Source of the DNA: an uncultured Candidatus Bathyarchaeia archaeon
GTDB lineage: Archaea > Thermoproteota > Bathyarchaeia > Bathyarchaeales > Bathycorpusculaceae
Assembly: GCA_964450845.1 (NCBI GenBank)
Contig: CAYVGZ010000018.1
Span: forward strand, 1-21,681
DNA length: 21,681 nucleotides
Direction: 5' to 3'
Positions within the stretch are counted from its first letter, which is position 1, and each line of letters starts with the position of its first letter. The notes beneath the pieces are model-generated. The model was not told the DNA's origin and made no database searches. It worked only from the letters and a program-made list of their open reading frames with translations. Below, piece by piece: positions 2,164 through 20,440 of the stretch. A program made the translations under genes and the position numbers.

Positions 2164-2169
2164 AAAAAA
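2164..2169 (-). terminator. Putative U6-tract terminator of Lys-rich micro-gene copy A
   Basis: T6 on the minus strand, 27 nt after the micro-ORF stop. Copy B has T7 at an equivalent 28 nt. Confidence 0.45.
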
Positions 2170-2196
2170 GGAGAGTAACCTATCGCTGTTAGCTTT

Positions 2197-2253
2197 CTAT
2201 TTAGTTTTCTTCTTACTTCCTTTTTTCTTCTTTCCAGTTGGACTTTTAGGCAC
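2197..2253 (-). CDS. Lysine-rich micro-peptide, copy A (MPKSPTGKKKKGSKKKTK, 18 aa)
   Basis: GTG start 6 nt after GAGGT, TAG stop, 9/18 Lys. Paralogous to 20025-20078 in upstream element and in the AAGAAGAAAAAAGG (KKKKG) core. Confidence 0.6.
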   Translation of the reverse strand: MPKSPTGKKKKGSKKKTK

Positions 2254-2258
2254 GTCAA

Positions 2259-2300
2259 GACCTCGAATCTATAATACTCAGTGATTTCTATATATAATCT
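2259..2300 (-). promoter_or_regulatory. Promoter/leader of micro-gene A: TATA box (TTATATA 2297-2291), conserved element and GAGGT RBS
   Basis: Minus strand TATAGAAATCAC-TGAG-TATTATAG-ATTC-GAGGTC (2292-2259) is 29/34 identical to 19985-20018. Confidence 0.6.
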
Positions 2301-2369
2301 CGTATGCACTCATTATCTTAACACATCATCCAAAATCTGTCCCACACATGGTTATTAACAGTATTTGAA

Positions 2370-2400
2370 CCCGTTTGGGTATGGGGACGGGCAGCCCCAT
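2370..2400 (-). other. Candidate H-type RNA pseudoknot in the intergenic region downstream of htrA
   Basis: Minus strand AUGGGG-CUG-CCCGU-CCCCAU-ACCCAA-ACGGG gives a 6-bp stem 1 and a 5-bp stem 2, both perfect. Strand and function are uncertain. Confidence 0.3.
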
Positions 2401-18423: not shown

Positions 18424-19773
18424 TTGACGTTTTACCAAACACAAACCGACAAAAATTCTAAAGACACATGGTTACATGAAGTCCTAAAAAAAATCAGCCC
18501 AAACCAACAAGAGACTCTAACGGTCACAGCCAAAGCCTCAAAAAGCGGTTTATGCGTAGTCTGCAAAGGCTCAAGACTTCTCTGCGGCAAAACCCGCTGC
18601 CCAATACTAGTCAAAGTCAACTACTATCTGAAAAGTGTTCCACTAATGCAAAGCGAAGACATCGAAGGCGCTTCGCCTCCAAGCGTTTTTGTCGGAAGAA
18701 TCGGCTACCCACACGTTTATGCTGGACCACTCGTGCCTCCTGTTCATGAAGACACAAGCCTCTACGACCTGCCAGAATTCTGGTTTGGAAAAACAATAGA
18801 CGACATTGTCGGTTTTCGCTCCATGCTTATTCGCGGAAAACACCGCGTTCACGTGCGTAAATTTGAGGAAGCTGGAAAAATAATTGAGAAAACCCGTGAA
18901 CTAGCCCTAGCCGTTAACCCTGTAGATGTTGAATTAATGCTGAAGAAAAAGCCTAGAGGCTTCCTGCTTTTAGACGATGAAGTTCAACCATTTGGTCCTT
19001 CAGCACCAATCCGTGACCTGATTGTTAGCAATGCCCGTTGGGATCATCAAATCGAAAAAGCCTACGGCGACACAGACCTAAAAGCCACCAACGCAGTTCT
19101 GGAAATTTACAGCAAAGGCGTGCTAGTGACAAAAATCCAAAGAGCCTTCAACGTCGGTGCCTTCGGCGTAAAAAAGAACAGACGACTTGTTCCAACCCGT
19201 TGGAGCATAACAGCCGTAGACAGCATCATCTCAAAAGAACTAATGGAAAAAGTCAAAACATTCCCAGAAATAAGCGAATACCGCGTGTACGAATCGCGCT
19301 ATTTGGACAACATTTTCCAAGTCCTAATGCTTCCAAATGCATGGAGCTACGAAGCCATAGAAGCCTGGTACCCTGGCACTGTCTGGAATCCACATGGCAG
19401 AGAAATTTTCCTCTTTTCAGATTGGGAAGGCAATGATGGAAGAACCACTTATGCGGAAATAGGCGGATGCTACTATTCTGCTCGCCTAGCAGTTTGCGAA
19501 CAACTCGCAAAAGAAAGAAGACAAGCCACAGCAATAGTCTTACGGGAAGCGCATCCAGGCTACATCATGCCAGTCGGCGTGTGGCAAGTACGAGAAAACG
19601 TAAGAAACGCTATGCGACAAAAACCTTCAACTTTCAACACGTTGGATGACGCTTTAAAGTGGGTTGCAGGCAAATTCCAAATTCCACTGCAACGATGGAT
19701 AATGCGAAGCGAACTGTTGAAGAATGCGCTTTTTCAAAAGAAAATAACAGACTTTCTAGGTAAGGTGCGTTAG
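18424..19773 (+). CDS. nreA: Archaeal Nre DNA repair protein (PCNA-interacting)
   Basis: N-terminal four-Cys cluster CVVCKGSRLLCGKTRC, SPPSVFVGRIGYP, RRLVPTRWSITAVD, GGCYYSARLAV and a C-terminal PIP box QKKITDF. Confidence 0.9.
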   Translation: MTFYQTQTDKNSKDTWLHEVLKKISPNQQETLTVTAKASKSGLCVVCKGSRLLCGKTRCPILVKVNYYLKSVPLMQSEDIEGASPPSVFVGRIGYPHVYAGPLVPPVHEDTSLYDLPEFWFGKTIDDIVGFRSMLIRGKHRVHVRKFEEAGKIIEKTRELALAVNPVDVELMLKKKPRGFLLLDDEVQPFGPSAPIRDLIVSNARWDHQIEKAYGDTDLKATNAVLEIYSKGVLVTKIQRAFNVGAFGVKKNRRLVPTRWSITAVDSIISKELMEKVKTFPEISEYRVYESRYLDNIFQVLMLPNAWSYEAIEAWYPGTVWNPHGREIFLFSDWEGNDGRTTYAEIGGCYYSARLAVCEQLAKERRQATAIVLREAHPGYIMPVGVWQVRENVRNAMRQKPSTFNTLDDALKWVAGKFQIPLQRWIMRSELLKNALFQKKITDFLGKVR

Positions 19774-19971
19774 CCTAGACCTAATGGACAGAGAACAGAA
19801 ATATAGTCAAAAAGCGGTTGAAGGATGCTATATTCCATTTTTCTGACTTTATTTTGTCCTCATGCATCAAAACGTTCTTCTGTAGCGTCTTTTTCTCCAA
19901 AAAATCGCTGCTAGCTAGTTAACAACTATATTTAGACAGATTTTTGAAAAGCAAGTCAATGTTACAAGCTG

Positions 19972-20018
19972 ATAGAAAATTTTTTATAGAAATCACGCAG
20001 AATTATAGGTTTGAGGTC
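19972..20018 (+). promoter_or_regulatory. Promoter/leader of micro-gene B: BRE-like AGAAAA, TATA box TTTTATA (19982-19988), conserved element and GAGGT RBS
   Basis: 19985-20018 is 29/34 identical to minus strand 2292-2259. Confidence 0.6.
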
Positions 20019-20024
20019 ACAATC

Positions 20025-20078
20025 GTGGCTGGATCCAAAACAAAGAAGAAAAAAGGGAAGACAAAGAAAAAGAAGTGA
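20025..20078 (+). CDS. Lysine-rich micro-peptide, copy B (MAGSKTKKKKGKTKKKK, 17 aa)
   Basis: GTG start 7 nt after GAGGT, TGA stop, 10/17 Lys. Paralog of 2197-2253. Confidence 0.62.
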   Translation: MAGSKTKKKKGKTKKKK

Positions 20079-20106
20079 ATTAACAACCACTAGACCAAAC
20101 ATCCTC

Positions 20107-20113
20107 TTTTTTT
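20107..20113 (+). terminator. Putative U7-tract terminator of micro-gene B
   Basis: T7 run 28 nt after the stop, mirroring copy A. Confidence 0.45.
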
Positions 20114-20167: not shown

Positions 20168-20440
20168 CTAATCTTCTCCCAAAATGAGCAACAAACCGCA
20201 TAAAATGTTTAAGCCACCGATAAAGCCTAAAGCACCAATAAATATTATGTTAAGTCTTGCTGAAAGAACAGGGTCTGAGGGGGTAATCAAAATATATATT
20301 CCAAAAGCGAAAACCAGAAGACCACAAGTAATCATTAACCCACTCAATTTTGAACCTAGCCGCCTAACAATGTTGAAAACTTGATAGCGTTCTTCTTCCA
20401 CTGTATTTTTTAAGAGTTTATCCTCGCCTTCTTCGCCCAT
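20168..20440 (-). CDS. Small two-TM membrane protein, probably co-transcribed with the APC permease
   Basis: 90 aa with an acidic N-terminus and two long hydrophobic helices. Starts 6 nt after the permease stop. Confidence 0.7.
   Translation of the reverse strand: MGEEGEDKLLKNTVEEERYQVFNIVRRLGSKLSGLMITCGLLVFAFGIYILITPSDPVLSARLNIIFIGALGFIGGLNILCGLLLILGED

Follow-up and report, generated by a model that had tools for sequence, protein, structure and literature searches.

Lysine-rich micro-genes of Bathyarchaeia and their possible role as nucleic-acid-binding polycations

Can an ORF of only 17 codons, lying in an intergenic gap and absent from the annotation, be a gene in its own right, and if so, what would its product do? 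The question is raised by a DNA stretch of 21,681 nt (here called the window), which is contig 18 of the assembly of an uncultured Bathyarchaeia archaeon (G000; 1.64 Mb, 93% complete, 120 contigs). Three public DNA runs that hold a large share of the window come from a hot-spring metagenome study. An earlier reading of the letters alone (the sequence-only reading) had proposed that a lysine-rich micro-gene begins at GTG 20025 (copy B), that it is unannotated, independently expressed, and selected, and that a second, diverged copy lies elsewhere in the window (copy A). The comparative data described here support that proposal. Typical gene callers drop ORFs of such length, and the family to which both copies belong, although found in most genera of a large archaeal lineage with a global distribution, is for this reason invisible in every public annotation.

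The copy B locus and its expression signals

On the 5' side of copy B is an archaeal Nre gene (18424-19773, +) and on its 3' side a convergent 90-aa membrane ORF (20168-20440, -); the gap between these two measures 394 nt, and an amino acid permease gene follows the membrane ORF. The unannotated 17-codon ORF runs from GTG 20025 to TGA 20078 (+), and 10 of the 17 residues of its product, MAGSKTKKKKGKTKKKK, are lysine, the rest being alanine, glycine, serine, and threonine. We collected 38 distinct members of the family and aligned 37 of them (alignment A4), which served to build R1, a covariance model that is based on sequence alone and spans the whole unit. R1 matched copy B at 19976-20110 (E = 4.9e-22). 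The features of the two units in the window are as follows.

19885-19965 (+): putative upstream block, a possible regulatory site, partly conserved
19974-19979 (+): BRE-like AGAAAA just 5' of the TATA box, read from the sequence
19976-20113 (+): copy B expression unit from promoter to terminator, about 138 nt, with a predicted mRNA of about 100 nt
19982-19988 (+): TATA box TTTTATA, with the start codon 37 nt downstream, a near-constant spacing in relatives
20001-20008 (+): A/T-rich element AATTATAG between the TATA box and the predicted transcription start, the position of a proximal promoter element
20013-20017 (+): Shine-Dalgarno sequence GAGGT, 7 nt 5' of the start; GAGG is invariant in 37 of 37 aligned members
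20025-20078 (+): copy B ORF, GTG plus 16 codons plus TGA (stop at 20076-20078)
20103-20113 (+): terminator-like CCTC plus T7, with T7 at 20107-20113, 28 nt after the stop
2164-2300 (-): copy A expression unit (paralog type A), matched by R1 with E = 1.5e-26
2197-2253 (-): copy A ORF of 18 codons, GTG 2253 plus 17 codons plus TAG, encoding MPKSPTGKKKKGSKKKTK
2305-2390 (-): upstream block of copy A, similar to 19885-19965 (+)

Each signal that had been named for copy B (AGAAAA, TTTTATA, GAGGT 7 nt before GTG, 17 codons, and T7 28 nt past the stop) was confirmed base for base. We take the role of AGAAAA as a BRE from the archaeal promoter consensus; in alignment A4, a purine-rich (G/A)NAAAT block before the TATA box is >90% conserved. 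In the 37 aligned members, TTTTATA or TTTAAATA precedes the start codon by a nearly fixed number of nucleotides, and between paralog types (described below) the columns of A4 differ here by a gap of only 1 to 2 nt. The A/T-rich element AATTATAG has a fixed spacing and is conserved across types A, B, and C; its position makes it a putative proximal promoter element. At the other end, nearly every family member closes with CC(C)(A) plus T5-7 about 25 to 35 nt past the stop, whereas, downstream of other genes in the genome, a C-rich prefix is found at only 20% of the first T5+ runs. Against this genome background, the C-rich terminator prefix is family specific.

Further upstream, about 60 to 100 nt before the TATA box, types A and B have the block TTAA.AAC..T.TTT.G.CAGATTTT.G.A, which is weaker in type C; the variant common to types A and B reads TTAA.AAC..TATTT.G.CAGATTTT.G.A. 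Positions 19920-19949 are 70% identical to the corresponding DNA of another genus, G010. This partly conserved block may be a regulator binding site, and because it is common to both copies, the duplicated unit is larger than promoter plus ORF.

Copies A and B can be aligned across promoter, ORF, and 3' end. The upstream element and KKKKG core that the sequence-only reading had found in both were borne out as a 33-nt element and a 14-mer, AAGAAGAAAAAAGG; the 14-mer occurs exactly twice in the window versus 0.06 times expected, and two occurrences were seen in 0 of 100 shuffles. Both peptides consist of lysine plus glycine, alanine, serine, threonine, or proline, and arginine and aromatic residues are absent from both, so that the earlier description of small residues between lysines and no arginine is correct for both window copies. 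It had also been suggested that more copies exist beyond the window. This did not hold within the 1.64-Mb assembly G000, where no copies other than A and B were found, but it did hold in relatives, which have them in at least 55 genera. An exact search for the 33-nt element in relatives, which was too strict, gave matches in G000 only. Copy A is flanked by an HtrA-like protease gene on one side and a UbiA gene on the other, and the window also contains one of the three Alba paralogs of G000 (169-456, -). GATGATG and CTGA boxes lie 5' of copy A; we considered a C/D-box sRNA there and rejected it, as these boxes are not conserved in orthologs.

Extent of the family and evidence for coding

We defined the family by a GTG, ATG, or TTG start with GAGG 7 nt and a BRE/TATA element about 37 nt upstream of it, 13 to 23 codons of which at least 40% encode lysine, and a C-rich T-run 25 to 35 nt past the stop. 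Every one of these elements could be read in copies A and B, and R1 matches both. Within the window's Bathyarchaeia family, R1 matched 92 of 151 genomes and 55 of 70 genera, with 1 to 4 copies per genome, and among high-quality genomes the micro-gene was detected in 52 of 78. The genome share of 61% is a lower bound, because R1-"negative" genomes still held diverged versions, of 15 to 19 codons, that weaker searches turned up. In a class-wide sample, 16 of 151 genomes were matched (G000 included), as were 10 of the 15 family genomes sampled; outside the window's family, this sample yielded little, with one strong match in a sister family. The exact architecture pattern (GAGG, spacer, start, lysine tract, T-run) was present in 40 of 401 genomes of the order, and the reversed control gave 0. 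In a scan of all GTDB species representatives, an architecture-type pattern picked out about 30 records from Bathyarchaeia whose peptides are nearly identical, and DNA and six-frame searches of relatives found a copy-B-like unit in several genera. The micro-gene family is spread widely through one taxonomic family, and single genomes can lose it.

The members fall into at least four paralog types (the three main ones, A, B, and C, and a histone-adjacent type H of about 16 to 18 aa) that have one common architecture: BRE/TATA, A/T-rich element, GAGGT, GTG, 13 to 23 codons of which about half encode lysine, and a C-rich T-run terminator. Type A has 18 aa with the core M-S-K-S-P-T-G-KKKK-G-S-KKK-T-K, type B (17 aa) includes copy B, and type C (16 aa) comprises MAKAAKGKKKKGGKKK and close variants; more diverged forms have 13 to 23 aa. 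G000 has types A and B only. Types A, B, and C, which share a KGKKKKG core, a GTG start, and CCC plus a T-run, are paralogs distinct from type H and lie at other loci. Orthologs of copy A with 18 codons were found in at least 12 genomes, with mostly synonymous differences, and 17-codon orthologs of copy B in at least 9 other genomes. The non-lysine residues SPTG and AGS are conserved, which suggests something more specific than bulk charge. A 23-aa family member had no match in Pfam at E values up to 10, and full-text searches of the literature found no description of such peptides.

The cross-genome search found homologs with a conserved frame. We fetched 37 R1 matches by score, blind to frame, and 36 of them carry GAGG, a start, and a lysine-rich ORF of 13 to 19 codons at the same model position. 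The starts of these intact matches are GTG (34) and ATG (2), and their stops are TAA (21), TAG (12), and TGA (3) at the same model position, so stop codons interchange in place; at the copy B stop site itself, TGA, TAA, and TAG swap among orthologs. Changes at codon positions 1, 2, and 3, counted as minimum changes per column within each type, number 18, 17, and 41 (chi-square, P = 7e-4). The indels within the ORF are of 3 or 6 nt in A4 and of 3 and 21 nt in G058 and G023b, such that all indels among intact members are multiples of three. The one exception among the 37 matches (G042; type C, L191, C12 10498-10623) has a damaged TATA box, GAGTT in place of GAGGT, and a 1-nt deletion in an A-run that leads to a premature stop. 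This copy is either a pseudogene or the result of a homopolymer sequencing error; joint loss of TATA box, ribosome-binding site, and frame is as expected of a dead gene. A frameshifted type A copy was also seen in G091, of the same order.

Synteny is kept between the copy B locus and genus G010, and the two can be compared along their length. From 76% in Nre, identity drops to 39% in the spacer upstream of the unit, rises to 75% between TATA box and T-run, drops again to 38% past the terminator, and returns to 75% in the gene that follows; the ORF itself is 81% identical, versus 73 to 76% for the flanking coding sequences. Conservation therefore begins at the promoter and ends at the terminator, as an island of 75% in intergenic DNA of 38 to 39%. 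Codon positions, indels, the 36 of 37 conserved frames, and the start and stop swaps together reveal protein-level selection on the short frame. We conclude from these comparisons that copy B is very probably a real translated gene, and that it is, as judged by its sequence and those of its relatives, a free-standing, monocistronic protein-coding micro-gene of this uncultured archaeon. The synonymous sites of the first two lysine codons of the KKKK tract never vary, so RNA-level constraint also exists. The reality of a micro-ORF was settled here by a whole-unit profile combined with tests of codon position, indels, and start and stop interchange.

Other gene models were weighed against the same evidence. 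The sequence-only reading had pointed to an in-frame ATG at 19959 and to a 1-nt frame difference from copy A, both of which are present, and had offered a 39-aa protein from that ATG as an alternative. In its wider form, the true product would be a 39- to 44-aa protein from ATG 19959 or TTG 19944 with the lysine tract as its tail, and we give it hardly any credence. The longer frame is open in G000 and G412, and a segment, IEIT..YRFEV, looks conserved between copies A and B. The bases of this segment, however, coincide with the TATA box, the A/T-rich element, and the Shine-Dalgarno sequence, at a fixed spacing that is also found in type C, and the likeness therefore reflects conserved promoter elements at that spacing. 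No ribosome-binding site precedes ATG 19959, the lysine tract of copy A is out of frame with the longer ORF, an in-frame stop lies no more than about 10 codons from the start in most members, and G020, the nearest relative of copy B, has both TAA and TAG in the longer frame; the 39-aa protein is thus refuted. Scarcely credible, too, is the idea of a hydrophobic (Phe/Leu-rich), type I toxin-like peptide on the opposite strand or of a chance ORF in a purine-rich spacer. Polylysine codons do read as Phe/Leu in antisense, and antisense frames are open at both copies; in one of them the wobble positions are those of the sense frame, so that the codon test is by itself no argument against an antisense peptide. 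Antisense ORFs nevertheless vary in frame, start, and length, none spans the tract in 8 of 11 type A members, and the sense strand is the one on which promoter, Shine-Dalgarno sequence, start, and terminator are conserved. No conserved opposite-strand hydrophobic ORF with its own start, as expected for a type I toxin-antitoxin system, was found, and chance is excluded by the 0 control matches in 401 genomes and by the 14-mer shuffle test. It is likewise very unlikely that the ORF is a lysine-rich leader peptide or attenuator that senses lysyl-tRNA, for example for the amino acid permease beside copy B. Such a role would fit the run of lysine codons followed by a T-run in copy B and the permease nearby in G000, G010, and G020, but the gene that follows copy B points towards it (20168-20440, -) and leaves no target for attenuation. 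Moreover, neighbors change between types and genera with no conserved downstream gene on the same strand, G002 keeps the Nre flank without the micro-gene, and at every locus the unit carries a promoter and a terminator of its own with fixed spacing. Finally, the unit could be mainly a small RNA or a dual-function RNA, with translation secondary or regulatory; its purine tract GAAGAAAAAGGG would then base-pair either in cis, with the C-rich U-tract at the 3' end, or with targets in trans. We consider this improbable. For types A and B, RNAalifold predicts a helix between terminator and KKKK-G tract, and in these types the cognate 3' end mostly pairs better than random G000 terminators (percentiles of 0.007 to 0.19 for type A, with copy A at 0.007, and of 0.011 to 0.29 for type B, with copy B at 0.23). 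The family-specific C-rich terminator prefix, the two invariant synonymous lysine sites, and a type A 3'-UTR hairpin with one compensatory pair also speak for an RNA role. Against it, type C members that have Ala-Ala after KKKK, where others have Gly-Gly, pair no better than random (percentile of about 0.6), and an ORF/terminator helix as a universal feature was rejected because type C does not support it. The helix arms are low in complexity and almost invariant and so provide no true covariation; a search of known RNA families (Rfam 15, gathering threshold) gave 0 matches in the whole window; and the third-position excess, multiple-of-three indels, and start and stop swaps indicate selection on protein.

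Genomic neighbors and proposed function

The surroundings of the micro-gene differ by type. Type C lies 5' of a double bacterioferritin-like gene in 12 loci, type B follows Nre in 7 loci, and type A is found near UbiA or TFE-alpha. We considered a Dps link for type C and rejected it, as the double ferritin-like gene is nearest to bacterioferritin. Type H, with 16 to 18 aa in K-K-P-A / K-K-A-P repeats, was found in five sampled genomes, and in three genera (G018, G387, and G303) it is divergent to a histone gene about 90 to 200 nt away. These loci, each beside a second histone gene, are as follows.

L200:575-1010 (G018, C4): type H locus
L203 (G387, C9): type H locus
L204 (G303, C7): type H locus

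In G018, the type H ORF has 18 codons and the family promoter layout and lies about 90 nt from the divergent histone gene; its R1 match is weak (E = 4e-4), and those of the four other genomes range from 1e-8 to 1e-12. In five genomes, that of the window among them, 1 to 2.4 kb separate type A from an Alba paralog, and the block Alba-UbiA-type A micro-gene is also found in at least 4 other genomes (L087, L126, L144, and L165). Many neighbors are unrelated to DNA, namely the bacterioferritin-like gene, an ECF transporter component, UbiA, the amino acid permease, and an Na+/H+ exchanger; because of this, and because neighbors differ by type, the histone and Alba links may be inherited synteny. 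The micro-gene can also be missing from an orthologous site. In G002, of the same genus, Nre is 90% identical and the DNA after it is unrelated (L249, C23): the copy B unit, the 90-aa membrane ORF, and the permease are absent after Nre, and R1 finds no match in G002. This difference points to recent loss or rearrangement at the locus.

Histones, and rarely tailed variants of them, have been described in Bathyarchaeia (PMC6136690). We found histones in 15 of 15 sampled family genomes and in 137 of 151 genomes of the class; in the 15 family genomes, their presence is independent of micro-gene detection. No histone fold (PF00808) was found in the 93% complete assembly G000, most likely because of a gap in its 120 contigs. 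The peptide as a replacement for missing histones was rejected, as histones are present throughout the family and no correlation was seen. A detached histone tail was rejected as well: all of the ten Bathyarchaeial histone loci with long open frames that we inspected encode ordinary tail-less histones of about 70 aa, which are preceded by noncoding read-through, and none of these histones has a lysine tail.

What, then, might the product do? A strong promoter and a leader of about 12 to 15 nt would yield an abundant mRNA of about 100 nt. Removal of the initiator methionine, which is followed by alanine, serine, or proline, would leave an unstructured peptide with a charge of about +9 to +10; the predicted mature peptides have 15 to 17 residues, 9 to 10 of them lysine, and are not expected to fold. 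Such a peptide would be an oligocation encoded by the genome and would work in trans to bind and neutralize nucleic acid. We see the chances that the lysine-rich peptide is a nucleic-acid-binding polycation as evenly balanced. Its likeliest target would be genomic DNA or chromatin, which it would contact like the C-terminal region of a linker histone or like a histone tail, RNA or ribosomes being less likely; DNA or chromatin is favored because of the histone and Alba links and the H1-tail-like composition. That the target is specifically chromatin is a possibility we hold only tentatively. A still bolder version, which we regard as doubtful, is that the peptides are free-standing "histone tails" or minimal linker histones, that is, trans-acting oligolysine peptides that would dock on histone- or Alba-bound DNA and tune its compaction, with paralogs A, B, C, and H serving different chromatin partners. 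If true, archaea would have nucleoid-associated factors of a new class, the size of peptides, from which lysine-rich tails may have evolved. Models of archaeal chromatin are currently built on histones, Alba, and a few larger proteins, and the peptide would add to these nucleoid proteins. If made at the level that the signals suggest, it would form a cellular pool of +10 oligocations affecting DNA compaction, RNA stability, or ribosome function.

The main competing function is that of a tiny ribosome-associated or rRNA-binding protein, comparable to eL41, bS22, bL37, or Thx, which would fill a negatively charged pocket of rRNA. A strong promoter, a strong Shine-Dalgarno sequence, and a very small, highly positively charged product would suit such a protein, and proteins of this kind are routinely missed by gene callers; the eL41-like ORF of G000 is itself only 28 codons long. 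We nonetheless consider this function unlikely. Known tiny ribosomal proteins are dominated by arginine and aromatic residues, and the window copies have neither. Single genomes carry as many as four paralogs, only 52 of 78 high-quality genomes yielded the micro-gene at all, the orthologous site in G002 has none, and the peptide drifts in length (13 to 23 aa) and sequence. Being multi-copy, patchy, and missing at the G002 site, it does not behave like the gene of a core ribosomal protein; multi-copy and patchy as it is, it looks accessory. In addition, eL41 is encoded elsewhere in G000. The copy B peptide lacks arginine, tryptophan, and the methionine-containing R-x-K-W-K-K-K-R-M-R-R core of eL41 (about 25 aa, Arg/Lys-rich, a single gene), and its identity with eL41 was rejected for want of this core and in view of the separate eL41-like ORF. 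The latter (contig C4, 13653-13739, -; L197:257-340, -) has 28 codons, a GTG start, and the sequence R-A-K-W-K-K-K-R-M-R-R, and it matches PF05162 over positions 2 to 25 of 25 with E = 0.0011 and 19.3 bits, which is below the family cut-off. This ORF, whose length is below the range of most gene callers, is probably the eL41 gene of G000. Taking origin and function together, a micro-gene family that encodes a free oligocation acting on nucleic acid is the best overall explanation of the sequence evidence, and we put its chances at about even.

Similar short ORFs and comparison with known systems

Short ORFs of a similar kind occur elsewhere. ORFs of the form MAKKK(A/K)AKKKK..., with 17 to 29 codons, stand directly behind a Shine-Dalgarno sequence, end right after the lysine tract, and recur within a phylum, at the following loci.

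L052, L057, L064, L108: MAKKK-type loci of CPR bacteria
L054, L055, L066, L084, L103: MAKKK-type loci of Planctomycetota
L082, L089, L090, L120: MAKKK-type loci of Woesearchaeota

These are probably separate polylysine micro-gene families, and they may be convergent rather than homologous. No family member was found in IMG/VR viral contigs, where the only similar match was a 20-codon ORF of a temperate bacteriophage with a K-G-KKKK-G-G-KKK core (L223:8017-8079, +). It lies in a replication module (O-like initiator, DnaB helicase, and integrase), is identical in five contigs (L221, L223, L227, L229, and L230), and may be convergent. G000 itself has a 13-codon ATG ORF (M-A-C-G-G, six lysines, G-K) on contig C1 at about 22544-22585 (+; L041), which begins right past the stop of the preceding gene without a Shine-Dalgarno sequence and has a Cys-rich relative in another archaeon (L091).

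The gene family described here, which is real, selected, and unannotated, is a new and very small version of the lysine-rich polycation theme. In size class, extreme charge, and annotation gaps, the micro-gene peptides resemble eL41 (25 aa), bL37 (about 24 aa), Thx (about 26 aa), and bS22 (about 33 aa). Those proteins, however, are arginine rich with aromatic residues, single copy, and universally kept within their lineages, whereas the basic residues of the window copies are lysine only and the micro-gene is multi-copy and patchy. Adenovirus core peptide mu and the protamines are DNA-condensing, charge-neutralizing polycations of about 19 to 50 residues. Both are arginine based, mu is cut from a precursor, and they are viral or sperm specific; they have no sequence relation to the micro-gene peptide. 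The C-terminal domain of H1, chlamydial Hc1 and Hc2, Pseudomonas AlgP, and the PAKKA-type tails of mycobacterial HupB have the same composition, with about half lysine and the rest alanine, proline, serine, threonine, and glycine, and, like the peptides, they are not expected to fold. Type H, of the K-K-P-A-K-K-A kind and adjoining a histone gene, is the closest in look to these H1-like proteins. The composition is thus H1-like (Lys/Ala/Pro-rich, low complexity), whereas at 17 aa the copy B product falls short of the tens to hundreds of residues typical of that group: H1-like proteins have about 60 to 200 residues versus 13 to 23 here, and the micro-genes are free-standing, encoding lysine-rich peptides without a globular or HU domain.
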